Assembly (NCBI GenBank): GCA_964618625.1
Contig: CAZUBI010000001.1
Coordinates: 164,781 to 228,780, forward strand
Reading direction: 5' to 3'
DNA length: 64,000 bases
From: an uncultured Candidatus Saccharibacteria bacterium
GTDB taxonomy: Bacteria; Patescibacteriota; Minisyncoccia; UBA6257
Position 1 is the stretch's first letter. Every line of letters begins with the position of its first letter. Shown one piece after another: positions 6,164 through 24,556 of this stretch. Below the pieces are notes generated by a model, which searched no databases, was not told where the DNA came from, and saw nothing but the letters and a program-made list of their open reading frames with translations. A program made the translations under genes and the position numbers.

Positions 6164-6166
6164 ATA

Positions 6167-6481: not shown

Positions 6482-6506
6482 AATCTTATTTTTTATTTTT
6501 ATTTTA

Positions 6507-8385: not shown

Positions 8386-8400
8386 TTGTATTTTAAATTC

Positions 8401-8796
8401 TTACTTCCCAGTTAATTTTTGACCTTTTCGTTTACCAAAATCTGGACCAGAAATGAAATATAAACCAAGTGCAATACCCAAATAATAATGAATTCTACCA
8501 CCTTCTATTATAATCAGCGCTAAATTAACTATTACCATTAAAATTCCAATGATCAGAAAGCCCTTTTTGATTTTAGCGGTCGTTATATACCTGCGATATC
8601 TAGCACCAAGAAACATAGACATTGGCAAAACTACTATAAGCATTCCTACAGCAATAAGAACCGCCTTAACAGGTATTCGCCCACCATACGCAATAAAAAC
8701 AAGAAATAAACCAAATGCAGCCGCTGCCGCCGTATTTACTAAAATCTTTTTGATAAGAAGCTTATTATCAATTTTTGGTAGTTGATTATTTTCCAT
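8401..8796 (-). CDS. integral membrane protein
   Basis: 131 aa, 3-4 hydrophobic helices; last codons (GQKLTGK*) are read from the junction repeat. Confidence 0.55.
   Translation of the reverse strand: MENNQLPKIDNKLLIKKILVNTAAAAAFGLFLVFIAYGGRIPVKAVLIAVGMLIVVLPMSMFLGARYRRYITTAKIKKGFLIIGILMVIVNLALIIIEGGRIHYYLGIALGLYFISGPDFGKRKGQKLTGK
8407..8430. repeat. junction repeat (inside the ORF 3' end)
   Basis: CCCAGTTAATTTTTGACCTTTTCG. Confidence 0.7.
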
Positions 8797-8798
8797 AT

Positions 8799-8820
8799 TT
8801 TTTTCAATTAATTTTTGAAA
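8799..8820. repeat. junction repeat
   Basis: TTTTTTCAATTAATTTTTGAAA. Confidence 0.75.
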
Positions 8821-9346
8821 TTATTTTAATTACCTTATTTGATTTTTCTTTCCAGCTTTTAAAAGATTTTATTCCAATATCCCACGAATTAAGTCCTTTT
8901 CCGACTATAAAATTCTTTTTATAAAAATCGCTTGTTTTTATATCTAAACTAATAGTTCTTTTACTCTGATCAACTATAATCCAATGTTCATTAACATACA
9001 CCTCTATAACACAATGCCCCCTGTTTTTAGGGTTTAATTTATCTATACCCATTATATATTTTGCAGGAATTCCTACTGCTCTGCATAGCGTCGCAAATAC
9101 TAAGGCATTATCATGACACCCTGTAGTAAAACCATCTTCCAAAACCTTATTAACATTTCTCCTAGCAAATATCTTTAGTATCTTTTTATAATCTTTACAT
9201 TGTTTAAGGTTTTTATCCATCCATCGAATAATACTCTCTATTTTTTCAAAATCATTTCCTGAAAATTTAGAAACTAATTTTTTAATTGATTTAGTAACCT
9301 TGCTTTGTTTTCCTTCTTTTAACCAAATTTTTATATTTTCTTTCAT
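8804..9346 (-). CDS. transglutaminase-like cysteine peptidase family protein
   Basis: 180 aa; GCHDNALVFATLCRAVGIPAKYI matches the transglutaminase-like core. Confidence 0.65.
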   Translation of the reverse strand: MKENIKIWLKEGKQSKVTKSIKKLVSKFSGNDFEKIESIIRWMDKNLKQCKDYKKILKIFARRNVNKVLEDGFTTGCHDNALVFATLCRAVGIPAKYIMGIDKLNPKNRGHCVIEVYVNEHWIIVDQSKRTISLDIKTSDFYKKNFIVGKGLNSWDIGIKSFKSWKEKSNKVIKIISKIN

Positions 9347-9356
9347 ATTTTAAAAT

Positions 9357-9376
9357 TCTCAATTAATTTTTCTACA
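9357..9376. repeat. junction repeat (CTAC subtype)
   Basis: TTCTCAATTAATTTTTCTAC; identical to 5001-5020. Confidence 0.8.
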
Positions 9377-9827
9377 ATGATATTTTTTCTAAAACTTTTT
9401 CAAACCCAGGCAGTAATTTCAACTTTTTTGCGTCTCTCAATCTAATCCATTTATAATCTTTTGCTTCCCAATTCAGTTTCACCTTATCTGTTCTTACCTT
9501 AACCAACACTGGATGAACAATCCATGTCTTCTTATATCGGAGCGCTTCCTGATGAAAAATCTCGCCCATACAAATGCTTTTTATTTCTTTTCCGCCAATA
9601 CCTAGCTCTTCCTTTAATTCCTCTTTTACTTTTTGCTTAAGAGTTTTTTTATCATCTAAAAATCCAGAAATGCCATTCCAATAACTCGGATAAAAAGCCA
9701 AATTTTCGCTTCGTTGAACAACTAATACTTTTCCCTTGTAATTCAAAACACAATTTATTACTGGCACCCAATGCACTTCAGTATAATCAATTTGCCCTGG
9801 TTTTGGTTTAAATTTAATCTTTTTCAT
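9372..9827 (-). CDS. NUDIX hydrolase (duplicate copy)
   Basis: 151 aa, amino-acid identical to 5017-5472; the ~505 bp duplicated segment is bounded by junction repeats. Confidence 0.85.
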   Translation of the reverse strand: MKKIKFKPKPGQIDYTEVHWVPVINCVLNYKGKVLVVQRSENLAFYPSYWNGISGFLDDKKTLKQKVKEELKEELGIGGKEIKSICMGEIFHQEALRYKKTWIVHPVLVKVRTDKVKLNWEAKDYKWIRLRDAKKLKLLPGFEKVLEKISL

Positions 9828-9865
9828 ATTATTAACACAATAAAACTATAATAGATTTTATTTTT

Positions 9866-9913
9866 GAACTTGTCCTGAGCTTACCGAAGGATTAATTTTT
9901 CGACTTTTTGGTA
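9866..9913. repeat. junction repeat, long variant
   Basis: GAACTTGTCCTGAGCTTACCGAAGGATTAATTTTTCGACTTTTTGGT. Confidence 0.8.
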
Positions 9914-9920
9914 ATTTACT

Positions 9921-10568
9921 TTATTCCCATAAATCTTCTTCGGAAATTAAAAAATCTTTTCTTTCTTTTAAACTTTTTATTACTTCATTAAAATGCTTGA
10001 TGCATTCTAGAAAACCATTCTTAGAAATTTCCTTTGCCTTTTTTGTATAAAACCCCTCTTTAATAAATTTTTGAGTTCTTATTATCCCTCTTTCAATCCA
10101 TTTATCCATTGGGGTTGTTGATTCTTGTTGCGCTTTGTAAAAACTAAAAACCCCGCTAATTCCGGATTTTTCTAATCTATCCGCATCAAAAAGGATTTTC
10201 GCCTCAATTGTTTCTGGCTCTATTTTACCATCATGCGATTCTATGCAATGAGCAATTTTTTCAATTTCTTTTTTAGAATACCCGAGCTTCGGTATATCTC
10301 TTTTTATAATTGACACCCCTGCCTCTTTATGGTTTTCATGTTTACTTTCTGTTCCTCCAATATCATGCAGCAAAACAGCAGGGATTAGAATAAAATAATT
10401 TATATCATTCTCTATTTCGGCAATAATTAAAGCTCTGTATAAATCCCTTAAAACATGTTCTAAATTGTGCTGTGGAAGATTTGCCTTATCATATTTCTCT
10501 TTTGCATAATCATAAACTTTCTTTATCCGAGGATCTTTTTCAACAAAATAATCTAATTTCTTCACCAT
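9921..10568 (-). CDS. HD-domain phosphohydrolase
   Basis: 215 aa; H..LLHDIGG..D metal-binding HD motif. Confidence 0.8.
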   Translation of the reverse strand: MVKKLDYFVEKDPRIKKVYDYAKEKYDKANLPQHNLEHVLRDLYRALIIAEIENDINYFILIPAVLLHDIGGTESKHENHKEAGVSIIKRDIPKLGYSKKEIEKIAHCIESHDGKIEPETIEAKILFDADRLEKSGISGVFSFYKAQQESTTPMDKWIERGIIRTQKFIKEGFYTKKAKEISKNGFLECIKHFNEVIKSLKERKDFLISEEDLWE

Positions 10569-10580
10569 ATTTCTAAATTT

Positions 10581-10907
10581 TTATTTTTTTGTCTTTATTA
10601 AAAATAGTCGTTTTTTAAAGCCTCCCCGCTTTTTATTTTTTACTTTTTGTTGTTTGTGAATTTGTAATTTTGTTAGACCACTTTCCGATATTAAAACATT
10701 AATTAATTCTTGAACATCAACGATTTCATTAATAACCTCTTTTTTGCCCTTGGCTTCAATTAATTCTTTTGCTTCTTCCAGTATTTTCTTCTTTATCTCT
10801 TTAATATATTCTTTTTTATTTAAAACTCGAAAATAGGGCTTTTCTTTATTTGCCTCTATAATTTCCAAAATTCTATCCCGAATTAACTTATTATGTTTTT
10901 TAATCAT
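10581..10907 (-). CDS. MazG-like NTP pyrophosphohydrolase (putative)
   Basis: 108 aa; KLIRDRILEI, EEAKELIEA, EIVDVQELINVL pattern typical of small MazG/HisE-like all-alpha NTP pyrophosphatases. Confidence 0.55.
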   Translation of the reverse strand: MIKKHNKLIRDRILEIIEANKEKPYFRVLNKKEYIKEIKKKILEEAKELIEAKGKKEVINEIVDVQELINVLISESGLTKLQIHKQQKVKNKKRGGFKKRLFLIKTKK

Positions 10908-10913
10908 TTTTAT

Positions 10914-10937
10914 TTCTCAATTAATTTTTGACGTTTT
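10914..10937. repeat. junction repeat
   Basis: TTCTCAATTAATTTTTGACGTTTT. Confidence 0.8.
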
Positions 10938-10965
10938 TATTTTCTATAACTTCAATTATCAGTAT

Positions 10966-11541
10966 TTATATTTCTTTTTTTCTTTCATTTAAATACTTCC
11001 CAAATAAAGATTTCGTAGTTTTTGTTGAAAAGGGTCTTTTTATTAACTTCTCTTCATTTTCTAAATACTCAACCATAGCTTTTTTATCCTTTCTAAGAAT
11101 ATTCTTCATAATAGAAAATCCTTTTAGTGTTGCCATCCACATAAAGTCCAAATCGTTAAATACACCTAAAATGAGATCCTCCTTGTATATTTTATCTTCT
11201 CCTAATGCCCAATTATCATGAACCGATACATAGTATGAAATTTGGTTAATTTTATCTTTATTATAATTTAATTTCATTAAAATATTCCTTGATATTTTTT
11301 CTCCCTCCTCCATATGAGCCTTACGTAAATTAAGATCGAGAGGATTGCCTGATTCTATATTTCTATATCCAACATCATGTAAAATAACAAGCGGCAATAA
11401 TAAAGAATCGTCAATATTTTCTTCTTCGCATATAAACATAGCATCCTTCATCATCCAATTTATATGCTCTATATCATTAGGCCGCCCTTTTTCATAATAA
11501 GGCTTTGCTAACTTCCAGATATCTTTATATACTTCTTTCAC
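10966..11541 (-). CDS. HD-domain protein
   Basis: 191 aa; ILHDVGY plus downstream His/Asp residues. Confidence 0.75.
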   Translation of the reverse strand: MKEVYKDIWKLAKPYYEKGRPNDIEHINWMMKDAMFICEEENIDDSLLLPLVILHDVGYRNIESGNPLDLNLRKAHMEEGEKISRNILMKLNYNKDKINQISYYVSVHDNWALGEDKIYKEDLILGVFNDLDFMWMATLKGFSIMKNILRKDKKAMVEYLENEEKLIKRPFSTKTTKSLFGKYLNERKKEI

Positions 11542-11556
11542 TTTTTTAAAGATTTT

Positions 11557-11584
11557 ATTTTCAATTAATTTTTGACCTTTTGGT
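11557..11584. repeat. junction repeat
   Basis: TTTTCAATTAATTTTTGACCTTTTGGTT, followed by AGAT (GTTAGAT). Confidence 0.8.
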
Positions 11585-12167
11585 TAGATTTTTCGGAAAG
11601 TCTTATATATTTGATTAGTTTATTACCATCAATTAATTCAATTGGTTTATCTTCTGCAAATCTTTCAGCTTCTTCAGTAAAAAAATTAGTTGTGATAAAA
11701 AAAGCTTTATCATTAGATAATTTATCAGATAAAGCCCCACAAAACTCCCTAACGTCTTTAACTCCTACTTTATTATTATAATGCTTGCATTGAATATAGT
11801 GTTTTATTCCATCTTTTTCAGCAATAACATCAATTCCTTCATCATATGAACTACCAATAACCCTAGTTTTATATCCCAATTTATTAAATAAATCTCCAAT
11901 ATAATGTTCGAATTCCCAATGTTTTAAATTGTTCAACCACTTTATTAATTCTCCATCAGTGTTAAATTGACTTCGTTTATGAATTTTAGATCTTTTAATC
12001 AACAACCTTACTACGATCAGAGCAGCTAAAAACGCTAGCCCCCATAATAACAACTTCCAAAAAAGTACTTTATTTGTCCATAAAAAGATTAGTAGAAAAA
12101 GTACATAAACAATACCTACTTCTTTTAAAATATCTTCTAGTGTGTCTAACCATGCTTTTCTTGACAT
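11565..12167 (-). CDS. membrane-anchored Mrr-cat restriction-endonuclease-like protein
   Basis: 200 aa; two N-terminal TM helices then GIDVIAEKDGIKHYIQCKHY (D..EK..QxK PD-(D/E)xK-like Mrr_cat core); C-terminus NQKVKN* is read from the junction repeat. Confidence 0.7.
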   Translation of the reverse strand: MSRKAWLDTLEDILKEVGIVYVLFLLIFLWTNKVLFWKLLLWGLAFLAALIVVRLLIKRSKIHKRSQFNTDGELIKWLNNLKHWEFEHYIGDLFNKLGYKTRVIGSSYDEGIDVIAEKDGIKHYIQCKHYNNKVGVKDVREFCGALSDKLSNDKAFFITTNFFTEEAERFAEDKPIELIDGNKLIKYIRLSEKSNQKVKN

Positions 12168-12186
12168 ATTTTTATAATTAAATTAT

Positions 12187-12210
12187 TTTTCAATTAATTT
12201 TTGACCTTTC
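12187..12210. repeat. junction repeat
   Basis: TTTTCAATTAATTTTTGACCTTTC, then ACGAAG. Confidence 0.8.
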
Positions 12211-12234
12211 ACGAAGTTGAAATTTATAAGGTTA

Positions 12235-12591
12235 TTATTTTCTACTGAAAATGAGCATCGTTATAAAAATAATAACTGAAGGTATCCCAAAAGCTAATGC
12301 AAGTGTTTTGTTGCCAGAAACAAAATAATTTATAGAAAAACCAACGCCTCCAATTGATAGAAACTTAAACAACTCTATCCAAAAAAAGGTTTTTTGTCTT
12401 TCTTCTAAAACTACATTCTTTTTTTCTTGTTCAAATTTCTCCTCCCTCATTTTTTCAAGTTCATCCTGCGTTTCTTTTAAAGATTCTTTCAGTGTTTTAT
12501 TTTCATTAATAACAATTTTTACTACGCCCGGGCTTTTCAGGTCTTTTTTGGTTAAATCCGTTATTTTTTTATTATTTTTGTGACCCGACAT
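12235..12591 (-). CDS. hypothetical coiled-coil/membrane protein
   Basis: 118 aa; charged coiled-coil segment then two C-terminal TM helices. Confidence 0.5.
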   Translation of the reverse strand: MSGHKNNKKITDLTKKDLKSPGVVKIVINENKTLKESLKETQDELEKMREEKFEQEKKNVVLEERQKTFFWIELFKFLSIGGVGFSINYFVSGNKTLALAFGIPSVIIFITMLIFSRK

Positions 12592-12592
12592 G

Positions 12593-12970
12593 TTAAGTAA
12601 AAAATAGGTTTATCGGGTCCTTTTCTGACCAAGAAAAAGATTTAAATGGTTTAAATGGAACAAATTCAGTAAATGGACGAAATGATTCGAATTCTACAAA
12701 CCCTGGAAATGGCTTAAATTGTTTAAACGGGAAAAATGGCGCAGGATAATCAGTCGGATTTTCGCCAAACCCAACACAATTGCCACCCTTATCTCTCATT
12801 ATCCCATTCTCAAACCAGCCAACGTATCTCCCAGAATAATTAAAAAGATTTCCATCTTTTACAAAACCAATGCTTTTGCCGGGAAAGCTAACTAACCTAC
12901 CATTATCAAGTAGCCTTAAGGTTGGCGCTCCGTATCTATTGTAAATTGTGTCAATTTCTTGCTCGTTCAT
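12593..12970 (-). CDS. hypothetical protein with C-terminal FKPFP-type short repeats
   Basis: 125 aa; ORF abuts the downstream gene (1 bp gap). Confidence 0.5.
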   Translation of the reverse strand: MNEQEIDTIYNRYGAPTLRLLDNGRLVSFPGKSIGFVKDGNLFNYSGRYVGWFENGIMRDKGGNCVGFGENPTDYPAPFFPFKQFKPFPGFVEFESFRPFTEFVPFKPFKSFSWSEKDPINLFFT

Positions 12971-13036
12971 AAATGAGACGATACTTTACAACTTACGTTT
13001 TTATCTCCCCGCTCATTAATTTTGGTAAAAGTAAAT

Positions 13037-13086
13037 CACGAAGGATATTTTAATTTTAATTTTATTTCTCAATTAATTTTTCGATC
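13037..13086. repeat. junction repeat (CGAAGGAT piece plus short variant)
   Basis: CACGAAGGATATTTTAATTTT ... TTCTCAATTAATTTTTCGAT. Confidence 0.7.
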
Positions 13087-13412
13087 TAAAAATGAAAATT
13101 CTTAAGCCAATGAACTATTTTTTGAAACGACTTTGTCCTCGACAAAACACTTCCCAGCCATCCCATAATTAATCCTAAAATTGATAATATAATTGCAGCA
13201 GCATAAGGATTTTCAAAAAGTTTTACAAGATTTTCCTGTTTTGAAAAAAAACTATATAATAAAAACATTAAAAGACCCCAGAGTGCACTAAGTGCAAAAT
13301 ATTCAAAATCCCTTTTTTCTTTTGATCCTATAAAATAACGAAACGACCAGACTGTAATAAATCCAGGTATAACAAAGAGAAAAAAATGAAAATTCAATGG
13401 TTGTTCTAGCAT
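13086..13412 (-). CDS. small membrane protein
   Basis: 108 aa, three hydrophobic helices. Confidence 0.5.
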   Translation of the reverse strand: MLEQPLNFHFFLFVIPGFITVWSFRYFIGSKEKRDFEYFALSALWGLLMFLLYSFFSKQENLVKLFENPYAAAIILSILGLIMGWLGSVLSRTKSFQKIVHWLKNFHF

Positions 13413-13436
13413 ATTAATATTATGAATATTTTAGAA

Positions 13437-13462
13437 ATTTATTAATTTTTGACCCTTTGGTT
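13437..13462. repeat. junction repeat
   Basis: ATTTATTAATTTTTGACCCTTTGGTT. Confidence 0.7.
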
Positions 13463-14185
13463 TGGAGTGCTTAAGACTTCTTTTAAAAGTTGCGTAGCAG
13501 GATTAATAGGGCGCGCAATTCCAAGTCCAACGATTTCATATCTTTGTTGCTTTCCAACAATTGGTTTTGCAAATCGACCACTAATAAAACCTATGATCCT
13601 ACTAGATTTTTGAGAAAAAACTGGAGATCCACTAAATCCTTTGTCGCAATTTGTGTCTAAATAAAATAGCTCCGTTTTCTTTGTATTAGAATTCTTTTTG
13701 ATTGTAGCTATTATTGCATGAATATTTACAAAAGAAACGTTTTTTCTACCTGAAGAAATAGCCATTGTTGACTCGGGAAATCCAGAGAAAAAAAGTTTTT
13801 CACCTTCTTTAACTTTTTCAGAATCAGCAATAGCTAAAGGCTTAATGAACTGCTTTTTATCTTTATTAGCTCCCTCAGATATTTTCAGTAACTCAATAAT
13901 AACACAATCATTAATTATGTCTTGAGTTACAAATTTAGCATCACACATAATATAGTTAAATTCGTCTGATGAATCTAAAATCCAAATTTTTAGATTTCCC
14001 TTATCTTTATCAGGTATTTGATTATACACATGTGCCGCTGAAACAAAATAAGACGAGGATACACAAAAAGTTGTTCCTCTTATACCTAAAATTGTTTTTC
14101 CATTATTAGTACTGAAAAAACCAATAATCCCAATTGATGGTTTAACTCTCTCAATAAACTTCTCCAATGAATTTCTAAAACACAT
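13442..14185 (-). CDS. trypsin-like (S1/chymotrypsin-fold) serine protease
   Basis: 247 aa; VSAAHV (His block) and GFSGSPVF (Ser block, GDSGGP-like); C-terminus NQRVKN* is read from the junction repeat. Confidence 0.65.
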   Translation of the reverse strand: MCFRNSLEKFIERVKPSIGIIGFFSTNNGKTILGIRGTTFCVSSSYFVSAAHVYNQIPDKDKGNLKIWILDSSDEFNYIMCDAKFVTQDIINDCVIIELLKISEGANKDKKQFIKPLAIADSEKVKEGEKLFFSGFPESTMAISSGRKNVSFVNIHAIIATIKKNSNTKKTELFYLDTNCDKGFSGSPVFSQKSSRIIGFISGRFAKPIVGKQQRYEIVGLGIARPINPATQLLKEVLSTPNQRVKN

Positions 14186-14193
14186 AAATTTTT

Positions 14194-14213
14194 AAATTAA
14201 TTTTTGACCTTTT
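14194..14213. repeat. junction repeat
   Basis: AAATTAATTTTTGACCTTTT. Confidence 0.7.
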
Positions 14214-14270
14214 AAAATTTCTCCTAATTTTTTGGTGACTAGGACATAAATATAATTGCTTACTCGATAA

Positions 14271-16112
14271 TTATTTATTCTCATCAATTTGTGGTATAAG
14301 AAGTTGCGGTCGTTCTTTTATTTCTTGTTGAATAAATTTATCTAAGCTATCCTTTATTAAAATGAGTTGGGCGCGTTGTTTTTCTGTCAATTTAAATTCC
14401 ACATCTTTTAAATCTCCATCCTTAAATAAAATACCAAGCGCTTGTATTTCCCGAGGCTTACTAGGATTATTTGATGGTAAATTAAACTCGGTCCGAATAT
14501 TTTCTATAAGATCTCCGAAGTCATCTATTTCTTTCTTCAAAACCGTTTCTAAATTTTTACCAAATACTAACAACCTATTGTTAATTACTATCTCTGCATT
14601 TTTAACCTTCCTAATATCATCCATGGAAATATCGAAAGCGGTTGAATCTTTATTTTGAGCACTAGATTGATTAAGCACTTTAATAATTCTTTCGTTTATG
14701 CCATTTTCGCTGTTTGCCTCATCTCTATCAATCACTATAAGACAAGGGATTCCGAAAGCAGTAAGAAAAGTATAAATGGATGGAATATTATTTTTTCCAT
14801 CCGCTATTACCAACGCAAATTGATTTTTATCAATATTTGAAAAAGAATGAAATACCTCTGCGTCAGAGGGCCCTTCTACAATAACCGCTCTAGGAGCGAA
14901 AAGAGCTTCCCTCAAGCCGTTTGCAACTGTTTCAATAAGACTGTAATGAATATGTTGATCACTAATATTCTCTTTCTGTTGTCCCAAAGAAATTGTATGC
15001 TTCCTAAGTAGGGTACTATCCACATGTCTAACACTTATATTTTTATTTTCTTCCCATAAGACAACTATGTCTTCAAAGCTCCCGCAATCAATAAAATCTT
15101 CCGAATGAGTAGTATAAATTATTTGCCCTTCGGTATCCTCAGTTTTAATAGCTTGTTTCAAAACAGTAAACAAAGTTTTTCTTGCTTGTGGATGAAGGTA
15201 GCTTTCTGGCTCTTCTACTAAAAGCACAGCCCGATTATTTCTACTGTGTCTTTTCAAATAAGTTCGATAAATAGCTATAATTGCTAGTCTTTGAACACCT
15301 TCTCCTAATGTTTCCAACGGAACTTTGTTGCCATGTCTTTTAACCGAAAGCTTAAACTGACGATAATACCGCCATGGTTCATAATCAAGAAACTCCAGAT
15401 CTGTTCCACTAAGATTTAGAGGCTTAATCTGGCCCCAAAAAGTTTTTATATCTTTCTCAATATTCTTAAATTCCTGAGGGGCTCTTAATACCTTGACTGC
15501 ATCCGATATTTTCTTTTCAAATTCTTCTACTTTTTTCCCTTCATCTTCTTCGCTAAATATTCTTTCAACCTTCTGCAACATTCTCCCCAAAACACCCCAC
15601 TTGTTTGATGGTTGTTCGCCCTGAAGTTTTATCAGAGGAATCGTAATAACAACTGGTAAATTATTCTTGATATCCTGGCTTATTCTTATTTCGTTCTCCC
15701 ATTTATTTTTGGCTATTTCCCAATCACATTTATTAAAATCGTTTATCGTGTTGAGGAGAAAATAGTCAACACCAACAGAAGATTCACCATATCCAGTTTT
15801 TAAATGGTAGGCTTCAATAAGCAAACCGATAACTTCTTTATTTTCCCCGTAATAGGAAATTTCAATTGGGCTATTAAATTCCGCCGCTAGAATAATCTTT
15901 CTAGAAAGTTTATTGTTATAAAAATCATTTTCATTAAATTGGCTAGATGGCCATTTATCACCAAACAAAATATCTAGTGCCTTCAAAATGGTACTTTTGC
16001 CAACATTATTTGGACCAATCAAAGCAGTAAGACCAGAATTAGAAAATTCTATTATGACTGGTTCATCACCAAAACAGCGATAATTTTTTATTAGAAGCCT
16101 TTTTATAAACAT
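14271..16112 (-). CDS. OLD-family ATP-dependent endonuclease (AAA ATPase + Toprim)
   Basis: 613 aa; N-terminal Walker A GPNNVGKST in the LLIKNYRCF..LTALIGPNNVGKSTILKAL context typical of OLD/AAA_15-21; C-terminal Toprim block AVIVEGPSDAEVF. Confidence 0.8.
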   Translation of the reverse strand: MFIKRLLIKNYRCFGDEPVIIEFSNSGLTALIGPNNVGKSTILKALDILFGDKWPSSQFNENDFYNNKLSRKIILAAEFNSPIEISYYGENKEVIGLLIEAYHLKTGYGESSVGVDYFLLNTINDFNKCDWEIAKNKWENEIRISQDIKNNLPVVITIPLIKLQGEQPSNKWGVLGRMLQKVERIFSEEDEGKKVEEFEKKISDAVKVLRAPQEFKNIEKDIKTFWGQIKPLNLSGTDLEFLDYEPWRYYRQFKLSVKRHGNKVPLETLGEGVQRLAIIAIYRTYLKRHSRNNRAVLLVEEPESYLHPQARKTLFTVLKQAIKTEDTEGQIIYTTHSEDFIDCGSFEDIVVLWEENKNISVRHVDSTLLRKHTISLGQQKENISDQHIHYSLIETVANGLREALFAPRAVIVEGPSDAEVFHSFSNIDKNQFALVIADGKNNIPSIYTFLTAFGIPCLIVIDRDEANSENGINERIIKVLNQSSAQNKDSTAFDISMDDIRKVKNAEIVINNRLLVFGKNLETVLKKEIDDFGDLIENIRTEFNLPSNNPSKPREIQALGILFKDGDLKDVEFKLTEKQRAQLILIKDSLDKFIQQEIKERPQLLIPQIDENK

Positions 16113-16166
16113 AAAGATTTTAGTTCTTCAATTTTTCCCAATATTTCTTCCTATTTTTTATTATTT

Positions 16167-16238
16167 TTTATTTTCGACCTTTTTTATTTTTCAACTTGTC
16201 CTGAGCCTGTCGAAGGATTAATTTTTGACCTTTTGGTT
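16167..16238. repeat. junction repeat (partial copy plus long variant)
   Basis: TTATTTTCGACCTTTTTT ... TCAACTTGTCCTGAGCCTGTCGAAGGATTAATTTTTGACCTTTTGGTT. Confidence 0.8.
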
Positions 16239-16269
16239 ATTACGTTCAAAAATCAGACCTCATAATAAA

Positions 16270-17883
16270 TTAACTTTCGGACTCAGTGCCCATAGTCATA
16301 AAAGATACATTGTATCTAAATGCTCCATTCAATCTTTTTTGTGCATTTCGTAAATTTATTTTGCTAAAAAATGGAATATCAATTAAATTTCCATGCTTAC
16401 TGACAATCGCAAAAACAATTGTATATTCTGATGACTCTGGTCTTGTAATGGGCACTAATGATCTATGCGAAGAAGGTAAGATATCTCGCACTTTTTTTCT
16501 AAACTCTACATCAGACAAAAACAATTCTCCCGATACAAGACCTTGCGAAAATAGATGACTTAATACTGATGATGCGCCATATCGTTTGACATGAATAATC
16601 TTTTTATCACTGGTTAAAAGATCACAAAATTCAATCTTGCTATGGGCACCACCGTGAGAAACAAGTTTGCTATCCATATTACACACTCCTGAAAGCTCCA
16701 CGGATACTCTCTTATTATACTCGTCTTCCTTCTCTCCTTTTTGAGATTCTGGCAAACTAACAACTGGTGTAATCGTTCGGATACCCTCAAAATGATTATT
16801 AATTTCGTTAGCGAAATTAGTCTCTACTTCATACCATCTCCCATTGCTCAAAATATATGTTTTATCATTCTTTGTTAACTCTCCATATAAACAATTATAT
16901 GCTTTCCAGTGATCAATTAACTCCTCATTTTCTGCACCAATGCAATCAATAATTTCCGATTTAAATATTCCCAATGATAAATTATCACGAGCATTTGGAT
17001 CTAATGCCATAATAAAATCTTGTAAATAAATATCGTCACCTAGCGAATTTTTATTGCTTTCCATGCGAAATTCTAAAACTTTTTCCCATGGAATAATACT
17101 TGGAATTGCCATCCAAATTTTTTCTATATCTTCTATGCCTGAATTCTTAACTTTTTCTATCAGCTCATTATTTAATTCCTCAATAATCTTCGGGGATTTA
17201 ATTTCTGCAATATTATCTATCCAACTAAAATTGTTTTTATAATCACTACTATTATATTTTTCATAACATAATTTAAGAAAATTCTTGATATTTTTTAATT
17301 TTATTTTTATAGAAAGTGACAAAGCATCTTTTCCTGTAACTGTTTGTCCAAACTCTTCAAATTTCGATTTACCAGTCATTCCTTGTAGTAAATCTTGCTC
17401 AATATCAATTCCAAAATCTGCAACTGACCCACTTCTGGTCATTTGTTCAGTCACAAGCTTTGGAATAACTGTCATGTTCTTCCTATCAATATTTCTAATA
17501 TTCTCATGGTCAATTATATTAACTAAAACTTTGAGCCCAAACCGTTCTTCCCATACACCAGGATTCAAAAGCGTTCTACCATAACCAAATGTTACAGCAA
17601 ACAATCTACCTTCCACTTGAACAAGAAGGACTGCTTTTGCGCTGGCACTAAATATCTTAAGTTTATTATTGCCGTTTAGTTTTATATAATTATCAAAATC
17701 ACTCCCAAAAAACTTTTTAAGCCAAGTCGGTGAAAATATGTATGACTCCCCATAATAAATGTTCCCTACCTCATCTATTTGTTCGGTACTCAAATCATCA
17801 ACATTTTTAAAAATATCTACATCATTTGTATATTCATCTTTGATGAGATAAATCGTTAATTTGTTGCAATATTCTCTTGGCAT
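16270..17883 (-). CDS. hypothetical 537-aa protein immediately upstream of the OLD nuclease
   Basis: Long uninterrupted ORF; no motif I can assign; N-terminus MPREYCNKLTIYLIKDEY. Confidence 0.7.
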   Translation of the reverse strand: MPREYCNKLTIYLIKDEYTNDVDIFKNVDDLSTEQIDEVGNIYYGESYIFSPTWLKKFFGSDFDNYIKLNGNNKLKIFSASAKAVLLVQVEGRLFAVTFGYGRTLLNPGVWEERFGLKVLVNIIDHENIRNIDRKNMTVIPKLVTEQMTRSGSVADFGIDIEQDLLQGMTGKSKFEEFGQTVTGKDALSLSIKIKLKNIKNFLKLCYEKYNSSDYKNNFSWIDNIAEIKSPKIIEELNNELIEKVKNSGIEDIEKIWMAIPSIIPWEKVLEFRMESNKNSLGDDIYLQDFIMALDPNARDNLSLGIFKSEIIDCIGAENEELIDHWKAYNCLYGELTKNDKTYILSNGRWYEVETNFANEINNHFEGIRTITPVVSLPESQKGEKEDEYNKRVSVELSGVCNMDSKLVSHGGAHSKIEFCDLLTSDKKIIHVKRYGASSVLSHLFSQGLVSGELFLSDVEFRKKVRDILPSSHRSLVPITRPESSEYTIVFAIVSKHGNLIDIPFFSKINLRNAQKRLNGAFRYNVSFMTMGTESES

Positions 17884-17886
17884 ACT

Positions 17887-17914
17887 TTTTCAATTAATTT
17901 TTGACCTTTTGGTT
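17887..17914. repeat. junction repeat
   Basis: TTTTCAATTAATTTTTGACCTTTTGGTT, followed by GGGC (GTTGGGC). Confidence 0.8.
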
Positions 17915-18697
17915 GGGCAATTTTGAAGGTTGAATCTCTAAACGGTTTATTAAAAAATTACCAGATTCGAATTGTTCTTTTTGATTTTGATTTAAAGAAT
18001 TTTCTAAATATCCCAAAAGGTTATCCAAAATCTGTTTGCTATCTCCAACTAGTTGGTGATAGCTGTCAGAATTTCTAAGATCATTAAAATCCCATAAGGC
18101 TCTAAGCCCATTTTTAAAATTAGCCTTAAGAACAGTAATTATTTCTTCTATATGATTTTTTGCTTCTCCGATGTTTTCCGCAATTAAATATCTGATGGTT
18201 CTAAGGTAATAAAAAATTATTTGATTTTCAGGATCTAATAAGGTTTTTTGGAAAATACCCATCATTTGAATACTATTTATTGTTTCATCAAAATTATGGA
18301 AGTCTTTTATAAGTAAGTAAGCCTCTAAAAGTTCTAAGGTGGTATTAGAATCTGGTTTAATATATGAGGCTTCTTTTAACCTATTTATGGCGCTAATATA
18401 GTTTCTCGTTTTAATATGGCTCCTTCCATCCTGTTCTAATCTTTCAAATCTATTCTCTATTAGTTGCTTAAAAACAAGCCAAATAGAAAATATCGCGAAA
18501 ACTAAAATGCCTATTTGGGTTAAAAAATTCAAAAACCCAAATAACAAATTCAAGTCTTCTGCCATATCTAATCTCCGAATCATAGAAATTCCAAATATTA
18601 CCAAAATTAAAGTTCCTACCACGACCGTAGTCCAAAATCTTATATTAAAGGATGGAAACTTAAATATTTTTTCCCAAAATGTTTTTTTGTTATTCAT
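17894..18697 (-). CDS. membrane protein with cytoplasmic helical domain
   Basis: 267 aa; 2-3 N-terminal TM helices; C-terminus NQKVKN* is read from the junction repeat. Confidence 0.55.
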   Translation of the reverse strand: MNNKKTFWEKIFKFPSFNIRFWTTVVVGTLILVIFGISMIRRLDMAEDLNLLFGFLNFLTQIGILVFAIFSIWLVFKQLIENRFERLEQDGRSHIKTRNYISAINRLKEASYIKPDSNTTLELLEAYLLIKDFHNFDETINSIQMMGIFQKTLLDPENQIIFYYLRTIRYLIAENIGEAKNHIEEIITVLKANFKNGLRALWDFNDLRNSDSYHQLVGDSKQILDNLLGYLENSLNQNQKEQFESGNFLINRLEIQPSKLPNQKVKN

Positions 18698-18748
18698 ATT
18701 CTCTTAATCCTTTTGTTCGTTAAGATAATTTAAGCATTAAAGTCAAAT

Positions 18749-19039
18749 CTAAATTATTTTCTTTTTAAATTCTCTCATTTTTTTTCTTTCTGCATACTCC
18801 TTGAATGCTACCTGTTGTCCTTTGTCTTTTTCGTTTGTTTCCTTGGTCTCAACTTCGCCAATAATCTCTTCTTTACCTTTTTTTGCAATCCAATCAGGAA
18901 CATATCCCTTTATCTTTTTCGGCTTGTCATAGCCTGGAAGATCGGCTTTTACTTTATATCCTTGACCTTCATACCATTTAACACTTCTTAAAACTGCTTC
19001 ATCGTGTTGTTTTTGACCAATTTTGGTTCTTTTTTTCAT
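18749..19039 (-). CDS. small basic hypothetical protein
   Basis: 96 aa, Lys-rich; 2 bp downstream of the AIPR-like gene. Confidence 0.45.
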   Translation of the reverse strand: MKKRTKIGQKQHDEAVLRSVKWYEGQGYKVKADLPGYDKPKKIKGYVPDWIAKKGKEEIIGEVETKETNEKDKGQQVAFKEYAERKKMREFKKKII

Positions 19040-19041
19040 AA

Positions 19042-20670
19042 TTATTTTTCAATTAATTTTTCTACTACTTTCCAAGTTGCTTCATTTTTAAAAATATTAT
19101 TATAACTATATTCTTTGCCTTCCTTTTTTCTTATTATCTTAGCCGCTTTTTTGCAAAAATTAACAGCCTTTTTAAAACTTTGCACTTCTTTTTTATCGTA
19201 GTTATATAAAAAAGTCATAATATGAAAATTAGCATGATCTAAAAATGCTCTTTTGTTCTTATTATTGACGCCTTTTAATATCTTCTTCTCTCTTTTTATT
19301 TCTTCTTGTACAAAGATACAATAATCACAAATCTTTGTTATTTCATCTATTTTTAATTCTTCCTCGTTAAAAATCTCTTTGTATATTGATTTATCCCCTT
19401 TTATTATGTCAAATAGATCCTTTTTAGAAGATTTAGCTTTAGCTGGTTTCATATATTTACAAGAATAAATCCACTGCCCTAAATCAGTAATCAATATTTT
19501 GTCCTTAATTCCTGGCTTCTTTTTCCTTTGATATGAATAACCTTCTAGATTCAATATTTCTTCTAGCGTTTTTTGAATGAAATCATTTGTCCTAAGATCC
19601 CACTTATCTATTTTTCTTTGAGTATTAGTAGATTGGCAAACCGAATTTATCTCATTTTCATCCTCTGCCTCAAAAAGTCTAGTCAAAATCATAATTTTTT
19701 TACAGTCGCCTGCTAAAATTTCCTTATTTTGATACATATTATAAAGAGTACTTAATGATTGACATCCGTTTATAATTTGAGGATTGATAACATTAAAAAC
19801 ATATTTATCACTTATTTGTTTCAAATTCTTGCAGCTGACAGTAATACCATTATGAAAAAGATAAAATTTATTTTTTCGTTCTAAAATTGTATTTTTGAAA
19901 CTAAATTTTAGGCTTTTATCATTTTGATTAACTCTAATATTATCTTCAAAAATATTATATTTTTCATCATCTGCTTTTTCAAACATATCTAATAGTTTAA
20001 TCAATAAAACTTTACCAATAACAATACGATTTTTTTTATCATAAAAAGAACTATTATCTTGAAATTCTATCCTATCTAAAAAGTTAATCTTTTTCGAATA
20101 ATTAATATCTACTTTGACCAAATCTCTTAAATTAAGTAATTTCAATTCTACTCCTGTGTAATTATTGAGATGTGATTCTAGATTTTTTTTTAATTTATTC
20201 TCCGCATTCTTTTTGTCTGAATATCTTATTATGTTTAAATATATTTTATAATTTCCTTTTAAAAATCTTTTCCTTGCTTCCTTAATCTTCTTTGCCGCCA
20301 AAGGATTTAAATTATGCAAAGAAGTATTTGGATTGAAAAAATTCCTTTTTAATTCTTCTAAAAAACCATTAAGAATACTCTGACGATCAAATCCCTCGCT
20401 TTTAACATCTAAAATATTAATCTGCTTTTTTGCCTTGTTTACAACTATCGCATCAACCCCTCCATCCTTTTTTCCATCCGTAATCAATTCTTTATTATAT
20501 ATTTCATCATTATTAAAGCCAAAAAGTATTTTTATAATAGTTATGATCGCAGCATAAGCGTTTTCGCTCGAGCCCTTCATAGAATAATGTTCTCGATTGT
20601 GACTGAAAATCTTTTTAGCTAATTTAAAATCTTGATTTATTCTCCTTTCTATATATTCTTTTAAAAGCAT
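19042..20670 (-). CDS. AIPR-family (abortive infection phage resistance) protein
   Basis: 542 aa; N-terminal ITDGKKDGGVDAIVV block resembles the AIPR DG..DGGIDA signature; C-terminus EKLIEK* overlaps a junction-repeat copy. Confidence 0.6.
   Translation of the reverse strand: MLLKEYIERRINQDFKLAKKIFSHNREHYSMKGSSENAYAAIITIIKILFGFNNDEIYNKELITDGKKDGGVDAIVVNKAKKQINILDVKSEGFDRQSILNGFLEELKRNFFNPNTSLHNLNPLAAKKIKEARKRFLKGNYKIYLNIIRYSDKKNAENKLKKNLESHLNNYTGVELKLLNLRDLVKVDINYSKKINFLDRIEFQDNSSFYDKKNRIVIGKVLLIKLLDMFEKADDEKYNIFEDNIRVNQNDKSLKFSFKNTILERKNKFYLFHNGITVSCKNLKQISDKYVFNVINPQIINGCQSLSTLYNMYQNKEILAGDCKKIMILTRLFEAEDENEINSVCQSTNTQRKIDKWDLRTNDFIQKTLEEILNLEGYSYQRKKKPGIKDKILITDLGQWIYSCKYMKPAKAKSSKKDLFDIIKGDKSIYKEIFNEEELKIDEITKICDYCIFVQEEIKREKKILKGVNNKNKRAFLDHANFHIMTFLYNYDKKEVQSFKKAVNFCKKAAKIIRKKEGKEYSYNNIFKNEATWKVVEKLIEK
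19046..19065. repeat. junction repeat (CTAC subtype; inside the AIPR-like ORF 3' end)
   Basis: TTTTCAATTAATTTTTCTAC. Confidence 0.75.
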
Positions 20671-20721: not shown

Positions 20722-21492
20722 TTATTTCTCTAAAATCCGAAATTTCCCTGATTTTACTAATTTGATACTGTTATAATTTTTTGGATTCTCAAATTCAAAC
20801 TGCCAAATTGAATAGAGATCCTCACCGTGTGCTTTATCAAAAAATAAAGTAATTACTTTTTTTCTTATCTGCTCTTGCCATTGCCTAAAAGGATAGTAAA
20901 GCTGACGAATAATTACATTTGCTGCACTAAAGTTCTTTGCTTCAATTAATACAACCTGCTTCTTACCTTCATACCCAGCATCAACTTCAGTTTGTACACT
21001 TGAAACTTTAATTTTTTGTTTGCCAACTCTAAAGTCAAAGCTAGGTGTATATTTTCTACCTCGTATTGTAAGAACAAGCGAAGGATCATTCATAAAAGTA
21101 CGAATCAAACTTGAGGCATAAGCATAATCAAGATGCTGCATTTCTGAATTACCGATTCTTGCAGTATCTAATTGAAAATCTAATTTTGAGGAATAAATTG
21201 ACACTTCTTTTTTAATTTCTGGAATATCAACATAACCTTCTCCTTTAATAATATTATAATATCCATTTTTTACAGGAAGTAAAAATAAATTATGCTTTTG
21301 AAAAATGTCTGGTCTATCCTTTCGTCTGTCCTGCTTGCACAAAATACGAACCTCTTTTTTACCTGTTTCTTTAAACCTTTGACAAGCCTGCTTTATCTGT
21401 TTTGCAGAAAGTAAAAACGGTGATTTATCAAAATCATGATCTAAGATTTTATAATCATCAAATATCTTTTTCCAAGATTTACTATTTGCCAT
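20722..21492 (-). CDS. type II restriction endonuclease (putative)
   Basis: 256 aa; immediately downstream of the methyltransferase (15 bp gap); D..EGKKQVVLIEAK PD-(D/E)xK-like block. Confidence 0.55.
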   Translation of the reverse strand: MANSKSWKKIFDDYKILDHDFDKSPFLLSAKQIKQACQRFKETGKKEVRILCKQDRRKDRPDIFQKHNLFLLPVKNGYYNIIKGEGYVDIPEIKKEVSIYSSKLDFQLDTARIGNSEMQHLDYAYASSLIRTFMNDPSLVLTIRGRKYTPSFDFRVGKQKIKVSSVQTEVDAGYEGKKQVVLIEAKNFSAANVIIRQLYYPFRQWQEQIRKKVITLFFDKAHGEDLYSIWQFEFENPKNYNSIKLVKSGKFRILEK

Positions 21493-21507: not shown

Positions 21508-22464
21508 TTATTTTTTAAGACTATGATTTAATTTTTTAAAACGCTTTATTGATAAATCTAAATATTTTTTTTCTGTATCAATACCTACAAATTTTCTATT
21601 GTTAAAACATGCAGCTAAACCTGTCGTCGAACTACCTGTAAAAGGATCTAAAATAATATTGCCTTTATTTGTGCTTGCTAATACTATTCTTTTAAGTAAT
21701 TCAAGCGGCTTTTGGGTTGGATGTTTTCCAAATACTTTTTCTTCCTTTTTAGGAGTTGTTATAGCCCATACAGAACGCATTTGTTTCCCTTTCTTATGCA
21801 TTGGCTCTATAAACTCATCATTCTGACAACGAATCTTATAATTATTATCCCAATCTCGCATTAGTTTATAATTAAAAGTGTGTTTTACTTTTTTATATTT
21901 TCGCGCCCATAAAATTGTTTCATGGCTAGCTGTGAAATAACGACAACTTAAATTGGGTGAAGCATTTGGCTTAAACCATGAAATATCATTTAGTATATGA
22001 AAGCCGGCAACTTGTAAAGCAAACCCACATTGATAAATAGAATGATAAGTTCCGCTAATCCAAATTGTTCCGTTTGGTTTTAATACACGCCTGCATGCTT
22101 TAATCCACTCCAAATAAAATTCAAAATCCTTTTTTAATCCATTGCTTTTATCCCATTTACCTTTATTTACACTTACACGTTTCCCAGCATGAACCGTAAA
22201 TCCTCCGTTAGAAAGCAAATAAGGAGGGTCGGCAAATATCATATCAATTGAATTTTCTGGCAATTGTTCTAGTATTTTTAGACAATCAGATCTATATAAC
22301 ACAAAATCGCCTTTGGAAAAATAAGGCTTTTGCTTGATAGAAAAAAGTATTTTCTTATTTATACTCATAAAGTTGTTTTCTATCTCCGGAACTAATATTT
22401 TTATCTTTTCGCATCTATAATTAAGATCTAATTGTATTAAATTTTGTTTGTTACGGTGGGGCAT
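21508..22464 (-). CDS. DNA methyltransferase, beta-class amino-MTase (N6-adenine or N4-cytosine)
   Basis: 318 aa; motif IV DPPY (IFADPPYLL) precedes motif I FTGSSTTG near the C-terminus, which is the beta-class order. Confidence 0.85.
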   Translation of the reverse strand: MPHRNKQNLIQLDLNYRCEKIKILVPEIENNFMSINKKILFSIKQKPYFSKGDFVLYRSDCLKILEQLPENSIDMIFADPPYLLSNGGFTVHAGKRVSVNKGKWDKSNGLKKDFEFYLEWIKACRRVLKPNGTIWISGTYHSIYQCGFALQVAGFHILNDISWFKPNASPNLSCRYFTASHETILWARKYKKVKHTFNYKLMRDWDNNYKIRCQNDEFIEPMHKKGKQMRSVWAITTPKKEEKVFGKHPTQKPLELLKRIVLASTNKGNIILDPFTGSSTTGLAACFNNRKFVGIDTEKKYLDLSIKRFKKLNHSLKK

Positions 22465-22505: not shown

Positions 22506-22694
22506 TTATTTTTTTGGCTTCCAATCACTAATTGTAATTGTTTTCTTTTTTTCGTTTATTTTAAGTTCAACTTTCTGTCTTTCTCTCCAGCGCCATTTTC
22601 GAATAATATCTATAGGCAAAGTAACAGCATAGCTTTTTTTGCCTACTTTTGTAATTTTTCTAATATTTTTTTCTTTAATTTTTCTCCTTGGCAT
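22506..22694 (-). CDS. AbrB/SpoVT/MazE-family small DNA-binding protein (controller-like)
   Basis: 62 aa; KVGKKSYAVTLPIDIIRKW..ELKINEKKKTITI swapped-hairpin pattern; three ATTACGTAAT palindromes in its own leader. Confidence 0.65.
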   Translation of the reverse strand: MPRRKIKEKNIRKITKVGKKSYAVTLPIDIIRKWRWRERQKVELKINEKKKTITISDWKPKK

Positions 22695-22745: not shown

Positions 22746-22814
22746 CCATTTTTTGTTTCAACCAACTATTATATATAGTACCCCTGTTATAAGATATTTT
22801 CAAACCCCAAAAAA

Positions 22815-22895
22815 TAACAAAAAAAGCCCTTAATTAGGCTTAAGATTTTGAAATGGTTCAGGAGGAGTAAGTAATTTATTACTTATTCCTCCTGA
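22815..22895 (-). terminator. conserved 3' element T1 (large GGAGG-containing hairpin, then AAGCC..GGGCTT hairpin plus U-tract)
   Basis: AAAAAAGCCCTTAATTAGGCTTAAGATTTTGAAATGGTTCAGGAGGAGTAAGTAATTTATTACTTATTCCTCC; similar copies at 23945-24015 and 27052-27145. Confidence 0.6.
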
Positions 22896-22901
22896 TATAC
22901 T

Positions 22902-23801
22902 TCAAATAACATAATATGTACTACGACAATGATAGTCATAGCACTTTTTCATTACCGCTTTAATAGCAGAATGAAAACATGACAATATTCCCGGTAATTC
23001 ATTCGGTTGCCCAGACCATATTTCTTTTTGCTCTATCCAGCATCTATTTCTCTTTTGAACTATAGAACATTGAATTAGATAAATTTTCTCTCCGTGATAA
23101 CCCTGACTACCTCTAGCAAGTACCGCAACTTGTGGAATCGAGAAATAGGCATGAATGCCATTAGACAAACTGCCACTTTTCGGTACCCAATATGGACGAA
23201 AAGCTTGTCCTCTTCTCCCACAAATAATTGTGGCACTCCCTCCGCTTGCCGTACTACCTCCTTCTTCAACCAATTCCATGCGAAGTTGCATATTGATTGA
23301 ATTAGGAATTAAAAACTTTGGTTTTTCCACTGCCTCTTTTTCCATCATCTTTTTATTCCTGTACCAATCTGCATATTCTCTTATAACGGTTGGTACATCT
23401 TGAGTCTTTAATTTCATCTCCTTTAAGGAATACCATGTTGTATAACGATCTCTACGATTATATCCTTTTTCATAAATCCATTGACTTGACCCAATAAGAA
23501 ATCTAAATTTCTCTTTAATCCCCCCTCTATCTTGATTTGCAACTTCAATAGTTCGAATAAAAAATAGTATATCATGGTAAAAATCCTTATCCCATCCCGA
23601 TTTATCCGGATCTTCTGGTTTTTCTTGTTCAAATCTTCCCTCTATTTCTGCGAGTTCAAGTGAATCAACTTTTTTAAGATTTATAACAATTCCTCCTCTA
23701 ACAATACGAGAATTGAATCCCTTATTTGTAAGAGATTCTTCCAAATCTTGATGTTCACCATAATGAAATCCGCTAATTTTGATTTCTTTTATTTCTCTCA
23801 T
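22902..23801 (-). CDS. hypothetical protein (module a cargo)
   Basis: ORF-track frame 22902-23867; likely start at MREIKEIK (ATG 23801), which is preceded by AAGGAG SD; the upstream codons in the track belong to the conserved leader. Confidence 0.6.
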   Translation of the reverse strand: MREIKEIKISGFHYGEHQDLEESLTNKGFNSRIVRGGIVINLKKVDSLELAEIEGRFEQEKPEDPDKSGWDKDFYHDILFFIRTIEVANQDRGGIKEKFRFLIGSSQWIYEKGYNRRDRYTTWYSLKEMKLKTQDVPTVIREYADWYRNKKMMEKEAVEKPKFLIPNSINMQLRMELVEEGGSTASGGSATIICGRRGQAFRPYWVPKSGSLSNGIHAYFSIPQVAVLARGSQGYHGEKIYLIQCSIVQKRNRCWIEQKEIWSGQPNELPGILSCFHSAIKAVMKKCYDYHCRSTYYVI

Positions 23802-23930
23802 TTCTTTCTCCTTTGTTCCCTTGCCTGTCATTACCAGATCAGGACTTGTGGAAACTAAAATTATCAAAGAACAGGCTAGTATCTAGCTTTATGCTAACAT
23901 ATTGGTGCTTAATCGTCAAGTATATAAATA
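23802..23930 (-). promoter_or_regulatory. conserved promoter plus 5' leader (module a)
   Basis: Leader CCTGATCTGGTAATGACAGGCAAGGGAACAAAGGAG shared with modules b and c; upstream TGTTCTTTGATAATTTTA block and TTGACG -35-like element. Confidence 0.5.
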
Positions 23931-23944
23931 ATGCCCCCGGCAAT

Positions 23945-24015: not shown

Positions 24016-24023
24016 ATAATCTT

Positions 24024-24518: not shown

Positions 24519-24556
24519 TTTCTTTCCTCCTCTTTTATTTTTTTATCATTTATTCA

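Follow-up and report, generated by a model that had tools for sequence, protein, structure and literature searches.

An OLD-family nuclease gene beside a DUF6119 gene in a Saccharibacteria defence island: probable single-gene cassettes in place of a two-gene system

OLD-family nucleases are sorted into classes by their genomic context: class 1 stands alone, class 2 is found with a UvrD-like helicase, class 3 occurs in retrons and class 4 is split into AriA and AriB (PMC10568477). Classes 2 to 4 are multi-component, and the class 1 OLDs are described as isolated genes (PMC10568477). The described class 1 proteins (P2 Old, TsOLD and that of Vibrio cholerae) are single polypeptides in which an ABC ATPase with a dimerisation insert is joined to a Toprim domain, and they have no conserved partner. 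The activity of class 1 enzymes varies from member to member and may be nicking or degradation of DNA or cleavage of tRNA, the last reported for P2 Old. The ATPase-Toprim logic is also that of Gabija (GajA/GajB, class 2) and of PARIS (class 4), in which the ATPase AriA and the Toprim protein AriB (DUF4435) are separate. Here we describe two adjacent genes, one for a 613-amino-acid (aa) OLD protein and one for a 537-aa DUF6119 protein, in 64,000 nucleotides of DNA (the window) from an uncultured Candidatus Saccharibacteria bacterium (assembly GCA_964618625.1, contig CAZUBI010000001.1, positions 164,781 to 228,780). An initial annotation made from the sequence alone had offered two readings of the pair, a standalone class 1 OLD or a new combination of an OLD with a partner.

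Autonomous defence genes are also known from within restriction-modification (R-M) operons. PrrC in EcoprrI, TgvAB on V. cholerae VPI-2 and the HEC and PDC genes (Payne et al. 2024) are nested between hsd, other R-M, Hma or BREX genes, a pattern described as 'guilt-by-embedding' (PMC11411939; bioRxiv 10.1101/2024.01.29.577857). One of these, HEC-04, is a validated ATPase-Toprim fusion (Payne et al. 2024). Homologues of both proteins studied here are nested in R-M loci in the same way, but DUF6119 shows no sequence relationship to PrrC or GmrSD, nor to any PADLOC v2 model.

The two genes are very probably separate single-gene defence cassettes that have become neighbours by chance in a defence island. 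The pair is not conserved. On the DUF6119 side the comparison covered 80 loci from species-representative GTDB genomes, each extended by as much as 10 kb on either side (less at contig ends), to which the three closest relatives (66-72% identity) and three plasmid or phage loci were added, for a total of 86 other loci. None of the 86 has an OLD-type ORF with both ATPase and Toprim within ~10 kb of DUF6119, as judged by a single-sequence search on the 80 GTDB loci and by three hidden Markov models (HMMs) of differing breadth, representing the OLD subclade alone, the subclade with distant OLDs, and the distant OLDs alone. On the OLD side, 14 distinct loci of subclade members (44-62% identity) were compared, and the DUF6119 HMM found no match in any of them. 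The closest relatives of OLD and of DUF6119 each occupy other contexts. The co-occurrence that the initial annotation had suggested looking for is absent on both sides, and with a cassette junction between the genes the proposal of a new OLD-partner pair is not supported.

The ABC-ATPase matches seen near DUF6119 in three loci (L036, L058 and L007) are unrelated ATPases (e.g. AbiJ-fused) that lie several genes away. A 532-aa upstream ORF in one OLD locus (L086), suspected from its length to be a DUF6119 protein, turns out to belong to a type III Res-like protein, as its C-terminal part.

The other genes of the neighbourhood are no more constant. The protease, the 267-aa protein, the AHJR-like protein, the AIPR protein and the restriction enzyme (REase) of the window have no homologue in the ~135 fetched loci, and the methyltransferase (MTase) is the only one that has. 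Neither OLD nor DUF6119 therefore has a conserved partner present in the window. The initial annotation had allowed that the two genes could be separable cassettes of families that do not meet. They are indeed separable in related genomes, but the families share a habitat, both recurring in R-M operons. Because of this shared habitat the side-by-side placement needs no functional link. The idea of a two-gene system dissolves, and the pair is not worth cloning as a new Gabija- or PARIS-like system.

The boundary between the two genes is a composite copy of a junction motif, which the initial annotation had seen there. On the coding strand the motif reads ...AAAGGTCAAAAATTAATTGAAAAATAAA... and it is placed at gene boundaries over ~2.4-19 kb of the window. 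The core, TCAATTAATTTTTGAC, occurs in 15 copies in the window as against 0.63 expected by chance. Junctions are ~30 nt long in the simple form and about 53 nt in the composite form. The stop codon is often part of the motif itself, hence the shared ending ...NQKVKN* of several ORFs. One cassette is duplicated (5001-5508 and 9356-9863, 504 of 508 nt identical) with both ends inside the motif, so the units that the motif bounds behave as discrete cassettes that have been moved or copied. The genuine two-gene R-M pair of the window, formed by the MTase and REase genes, is not split by the motif. The motif was absent from the ~135 other fetched loci and is lineage-specific; as such it provides a handle on the assembly of the variable island in this small-genome bacterium.

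Both ORFs are intact, co-oriented on the minus strand and 157 nt apart, exactly where the initial annotation had placed them (Table 1). The OLD hallmarks that it had recognised are present as well, namely the Walker A GPNNVGKST (residues 33-41) and the Toprim motif VIVEGPSDAEVF with the glutamate E413, and both Pfam and PADLOC agree with the assignment. The Pfam matches are AAA_15 (1.3e-40), AAA_21 (6.8e-28) and OLD-like_TOPRIM (1.3e-10). The top PADLOC model is 'Old' (5e-44), ahead of AriA (2e-40), which covers the ATPase part alone (residues 1-341), and of GajA (1e-32). The protein belongs to a subclade of ~60 proteins with 44-62% identity, beyond which identity drops to 29% or less. Every residue that is invariant in a 26-member alignment of the subclade (A2) is kept in the window OLD, including G33, N35, N36, G38, K39 and S40 of Walker A and E413, G414 and D462 of the Toprim domain; D464 is at least 90% conserved. 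The motifs Walker A GPNNVGKS, Walker B LLVEEPES and H-loop TTHS are all present and are invariant in A2.

The assignment of the 613-aa protein as a standalone class-1-type OLD, without a dedicated partner, is supported by these sequence comparisons, and the first of the two initial readings stands. It follows from the nearest solved relative, the lack of any class 2-4 hallmark and the absence of a conserved neighbour in the 14 loci. A profile of the subclade searched against the PDB finds the Thermus scotoductus class 1 OLD (TsOLD, 6P74) at 2.4e-52, whereas GajA structures are matched only at ~1e-10. No UvrD-like GajB adjoins the window OLD, since the flanking genes are those of DUF6119 and a trypsin-like protease and neither a helicase domain nor a GajB match was found with Pfam and PADLOC. 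Of the hallmarks of retrons, no reverse transcriptase (RT) domain was found in the Pfam-scanned ORFs of 12.6-22.5 kb, and Rfam yields a single tRNA and nothing else in the window, hence no msr/msd RNA. The split arrangement of PARIS is also absent, the ATPase and the Toprim domain being fused in one ORF. The window OLD is thus a further member of an already known type. It differs from the described class 1 proteins in that it belongs to a separate tight subclade, carries ~120 residues C-terminal to the Toprim match and sits in a defence island.

The neighbours of OLD relatives differ across the 14 loci, and only R-M genes recur, in some of them. Three loci (L090-L092) have the order hsdM-OLD-hsdS-hsdR, confirmed by Pfam in L091 and indicated in L090 and L092 by common HsdS/HsdR neighbour clusters. 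In L091 (4115-11983) the genes of this operon overlap by 4 nt. An OLD relative directly follows an MmeI-type fused R-M enzyme in L134 (1558-6836), follows a type III Res in L086 and adjoins an MvaI/BcnI R-M system in L084. Elsewhere the relatives are found in a prophage-like setting (L085), beside secDF (L087), two genes from a Trypsin_2 gene (L133) or alone (L135). The repeated nesting of this subclade in type I, IIG and III R-M loci qualifies the textbook picture of class 1 OLDs as isolated genes.

The initial annotation found no assignable motif in the 537-aa protein, and correctly judged it to be neither a UvrD-like helicase nor AriB-like. The protein is in fact a full-length match to PF19614 (DUF6119; 4.4e-140 over residues 9-528, 468 bits with a Pfam cut-off of 27) and to the NCBIfam model TIGR04141 ('sporadically distributed protein'; 2.2e-141, 472 bits with a cut-off of 35); together the two models span residues 9-529. 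More than 1,700 homologues occur across many phyla. Their distribution is sporadic, and some are found on plasmids and one on a temperate phage. The nearest named homologue, from a Candidatus Falkowbacteria metagenome-assembled genome (L004), is 67% identical; taken by itself it makes the host probably a member of the CPR/Patescibacteria. PADLOC-DB v2, PDC candidates included, has no model that matches DUF6119 at E <= 0.01. A search of the literature on DUF6119/TIGR04141 returned incidental mentions and no functional account, and the text and supplements of Payne et al. (2024) do not name the family.

An AlphaFold2 model of the DUF6119 protein (pLDDT 79) suggests a nuclease-like fold. A model of residues 1-380 by themselves no longer yields the nuclease-fold hits, which places this fold in residues ~381-537; for the N-terminal 380 residues no fold could be matched with confidence. 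Six residues (E386, D404, E418, D421, H431 and K433) are invariant in the DUF6119 alignment, and the (D/E)xK position reads H431-x-K433, which is non-canonical. Sequence searches gave nothing at E <= 1 in the PDB, and Pfam at E <= 10 on three fragments of the protein returned DUF6119 itself only. Since the Foldseek search against the PDB gave no significant match and the motif departs from the canonical form, we infer a PD-(D/E)xK-type nuclease domain as a prediction from the model. The same features set the domain apart from known PD-(D/E)xK effectors (the FokI cleavage domain, HamA, McrC, Cas4 and SduA), with which there is no sequence-level similarity.

Residues 136-163 of DUF6119 (17395-17478) form the sole long segment of low confidence in the model (pLDDT 30-47). 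The segment is dense in invariant residues (P141, K142, E146, Q147, F157 and E162-Q163-D164-L165). A flexible loop is probable here, functional and perhaps involved in substrate binding or regulation.

When the neighbours of DUF6119 are clustered and checked with Pfam, co-oriented R-M genes recur, namely HsdM/HsdS/HsdR, Mod/Res with SNF2, and type II MTases. In 41 of the 80 loci an MTase is found no more than four genes from DUF6119. Type I genes are present in ~23 loci, with HsdM/HsdS upstream and HsdR downstream, and the strict order hsdM-hsdS-DUF6119-hsdR is found in at least 11. The order SNF2-DUF6119-Mod-Res is found in Neisseria, Haemophilus, Salinisphaera and Methylomonas. In two loci DUF6119 is appended to a complete type IIS system, after a TdeIII REase, a Dam-like MTase and an N6_N4 MTase (L005) or after a RadC-Dam MTase, an AlwI REase and an N6_N4 MTase (L076). 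The closest named relative follows a type III Mod-Res, and the closest relative overall (72%) lies directly behind a fused Eco57I-type enzyme. The R-M systems to which DUF6119 is added always possess a nuclease already.

Because DUF6119 is found again and again inside complete type I, II and III R-M systems or attached to them, its predicted role is most likely that of an accessory or second-line restriction or abortive-infection nuclease. That the family consists of widespread, uncharacterised, R-M-embedded stand-alone defence nucleases is a prediction to which we give an even chance. A large and highly conserved family with neither a published function nor a PADLOC model now has a testable hypothesis, that of an R-M-linked accessory nuclease, with named candidate catalytic residues.

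Table 1. Coordinates of the two genes, the cassette junctions, the neighbouring genes and the distant DUF6119 module (window positions unless a locus is given).
Feature	Position	Strand	Description
OLD-family nuclease gene	14271-16112	(-)	613 aa; N-terminal ABC-type ATPase and C-terminal Toprim in one polypeptide; class-1-type single-gene unit, by sequence comparison
OLD Walker A / P-loop codons	15993-16016	(-)	G33-S40, GPNNVGKS; from the translation and alignment conservation
OLD Toprim domain	14721-14903	(-)	Residues 404-464, with E413-G414 and the acidic D462-x-D464; PF20469 match
DUF6119/TIGR04141 gene	16270-17883	(-)	537 aa; very probably an independent single-gene cassette; candidate R-M-linked nuclease
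DUF6119 C-terminal ~157 residues	16273-16743	(-)	Residues 381-537; predicted restriction-endonuclease-like PD-(D/E)xK fold; invariant E386, D404, E418, D421, H431, K433
Composite junction between DUF6119 stop and OLD start	16182-16244	(-)	Simple motif plus 23-nt insert; repeat family D10
Junction just upstream of DUF6119 start	17877-17914	(-)	Repeat families D1, D3; includes the stop of the preceding 267-aa gene (...NQKVKN*)
Junction downstream of OLD stop	14183-14213	(-)	Before the trypsin-like gene; repeat family D1
Type II N6_N4 MTase	21508-22464	(-)	Upstream defence cluster
DUF6996/DUF6997 restriction enzyme (REase)	20722-21492	(-)	PADLOC REase_II 4e-37
AIPR/AbiU	19042-20670	(-)	1e-31
AHJR-like small nuclease-fold protein	18749-19039	(-)	2-nt gap after AIPR/AbiU
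267-aa membrane protein	17894-18697	(-)	10 nt before DUF6119
Trypsin-like protease	13442-14185	(-)	Trypsin_2 3.8e-10; 85 nt after OLD
DUF6119-ATPase-third gene module	L045 4313-8582; L047 10001-14324; L059 1307-3866		Genes overlap or abut; 63-80% identical between loci

We infer a defence role for both genes, together with their triggers, along the following lines. The OLD protein would act without a dedicated partner, its ABC-type ATPase regulating or targeting a two-metal Toprim nuclease so that nucleic acid is cut on infection. The DUF6119 protein would be a stand-alone effector, with sensing or binding in the N-terminal and middle region and cleavage by the predicted C-terminal nuclease domain. 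Neither of them sits inside an R-M operon in the window; each occupies its own cassette.

Several observations weigh against two independent cassettes. The shared orientation and the 157-nt gap make co-transcription of the two genes possible; no convincing terminator or promoter was seen between them, in a scan of 13-23 kb whose counts equal those of shuffled sequence and are thus uninformative on co-transcription. The sample of OLD-subclade neighbourhoods is small and many contigs are short. Finally, in a distant subclade of DUF6119 the gene is followed by that of an AAA_15/AAA_21 ABC ATPase, to which it is tightly coupled, in a Steroidobacteraceae (L045), a Planctomycetota (L047) and a Chloroflexota (L059) genome. 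The DUF6119 proteins of these loci share 65-80% identity among themselves and ~35% with the window protein. The ATPases are 66-73% identical between loci and translationally coupled to DUF6119, and the complete copy in L045 also bears DUF3696. A third gene in L045 and L047 encodes a protein of ~313 aa with no Pfam match (63% identical), and the L059 contig stops inside the ATPase gene. With genes that overlap or abut and identities of 63-80% across three phyla, the module looks like a candidate multi-gene system centred on DUF6119 that has spread by horizontal transfer. Somewhere in the family, then, DUF6119 can partner with an ABC ATPase.

Among the other explanations, a minor but real possibility is that DUF6119 is a PrrC-like guard of R-M systems, which the R-M complex would keep inactive until a phage anti-restriction protein disables restriction and so frees it to act as a suicide nuclease. 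The guard model narrows down what the preferred explanation says of DUF6119 and is compatible with independence from OLD. The hsdM-hsdS-DUF6119-hsdR slot is the slot of PrrC in EcoprrI, and the host R-M system always keeps a nuclease of its own. About half of the 80 loci have no MTase within four genes, which tells against such a guard, as does the association with four mechanistically different R-M types, which is unlike a specific protein-protein latch, and in the window DUF6119 is in its own cassette, three genes away from the R-M pair.

It is improbable, though conceivable, that DUF6119 is instead a modification-dependent (type IV-like) restriction nuclease that hits phages with modified DNA and so complements its R-M neighbours, in the manner of the TgvAB/GmrSD-like genes found inside type I loci. 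The embedding pattern would fit, being that of TgvAB (PMC11411939), and so would the architecture, in which a large N-terminal region lacking an assigned fold precedes a nuclease-like C-terminal domain, as well as the sporadic distribution that extends to plasmids and a temperate phage.

An unlikely explanation is that one or both genes serve something other than defence, for example maintenance of the cassette array or of mobile elements, or DNA repair. The archaeal OLD class Cran1 acts in the cell cycle and not in defence (PMC12796447), the array carries many non-defence cassettes (lipase, NUDIX, HD, M23 peptidase), and no experiment exists on DUF6119. Against this, both families are repeatedly embedded in R-M operons across phyla, and the immediate neighbours in the window are AbiU/AIPR, Mrr and a type II R-M system.

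Because the distant subclade pairs DUF6119 with an ABC ATPase, we leave a small residual probability for a functional link between DUF6119 and OLD. In its general form, which we consider quite unlikely, DUF6119 proteins would be nuclease effectors that work with ABC-type ATPases, with AAA_15/DUF3696 proteins in L045, L047 and L059 and with OLD here; the DUF6119-OLD pair would then be a further OLD context not seen before. The ATPase of L045 and the OLD ATPase do belong to the same broad superfamily.

Very doubtful, too, is the specific form in which OLD and DUF6119 make up a new two-gene OLD-partner system, with DUF6119 replacing the helicase GajB or cooperating with the OLD ATPase. The adjacency, the shared orientation and the short gap, the distant module with its ATPase and third conserved gene, and the multi-component nature of OLD classes 2-4 (PMC10568477) all speak for it. 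They are countered by the failure of the families to meet in any of the 86 and 14 loci, by the other contexts of the closest relatives and by the cassette junction between the genes. The L045-type ATPase, moreover, has no Toprim domain and no BLAST similarity to the window OLD, and the window DUF6119 is distant from that subclade.

That OLD works with the trypsin-like protease, or DUF6119 with the 267-aa membrane protein, is scarcely credible and largely refuted: the gaps are short, the protease matches defence models and L133 has its Trypsin_2 gene, but junction motifs part both pairs, the protease and the 267-aa protein have no homologue in the ~135 loci (phmmer, E <= 1e-3), and the L133 protease is on the opposite strand with no detectable homology.

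The region around the two genes is a variable or defence island, as the initial annotation had implied, in the chromosome of a low-GC bacterium. All genes of the neighbourhood are on the minus strand. The AIPR/AbiU protein, the type II R-M pair and Mrr belong to it, and the trypsin-like cassette immediately downstream of OLD was also read correctly. Beyond the protease lie Mrr, HD, NUDIX, NYN and other small genes. The protease matches the PADLOC models PDC-M35A (3e-13), retron RT-protease and LmuA-like, and it may be another stand-alone effector of defence type. A possible MazE-like ORF of 62 aa is located at 22506-22694.

The array as a whole (2400-19100, minus strand) consists of ~25 mostly single-gene units of unrelated functions, all in one direction. 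M23 peptidase, GDSL lipase, MBL, NYN, NUDIX, transglutaminase-like, HD, Mrr, beta-flower, protease, OLD and DUF6119 units are included. The duplicated cassette carries a gene for a 151-aa protein (ORFs 5017-5472 and 9372-9827) that is NUDIX hydrolase-like by eye only. Composite junctions are found three times (2424-2486, 9856-9918 and 16182-16244) and share a conserved 23-nt insert, CCTTCG-N5-CTCAGGACAAGT on the coding strand, which Rfam does not match at gathering score. In two of the three a second half-site, AAAGGTCGAAAATAA, follows. The ~30-nt motif contains a 4-bp palindrome (TCAA...TTGA), seen by eye only.

In its unidirectional layout, its unrelated and mostly single-gene units, its conserved junction and its duplicated cassette with ends in the junction, the array resembles those of integrons. 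Unlike integrons, the window has no IntI or other recombinase: none of the 60 Pfam-scanned ORFs in the 64 kb has an integrase or recombinase domain, which could sit outside the window. The junction is also short, at ~30 nt, with no evident R''/L''-L'/R' attC architecture.

Beside the array, 22800-27600 holds six ORFs of 130-337 aa with no Pfam match, between which the terminator-like hairpin AAAAAAAGCCCTTAATTAGGCTTAA is repeated (22812, 23939 and 27050). Three of the ORFs have a conserved 5' end in common (23798, 24916 and 27527) and may form a small paralogous family. Ordinary chromosomal genes fill the right half of the window, among them those for an aminoacyl-tRNA synthetase, ComEC, NrdD, FtsZ and FtsA. 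The gene for NrdD, the anaerobic ribonucleotide reductase (44882-48217), is split by an intein with a LAGLIDADG homing-endonuclease domain.

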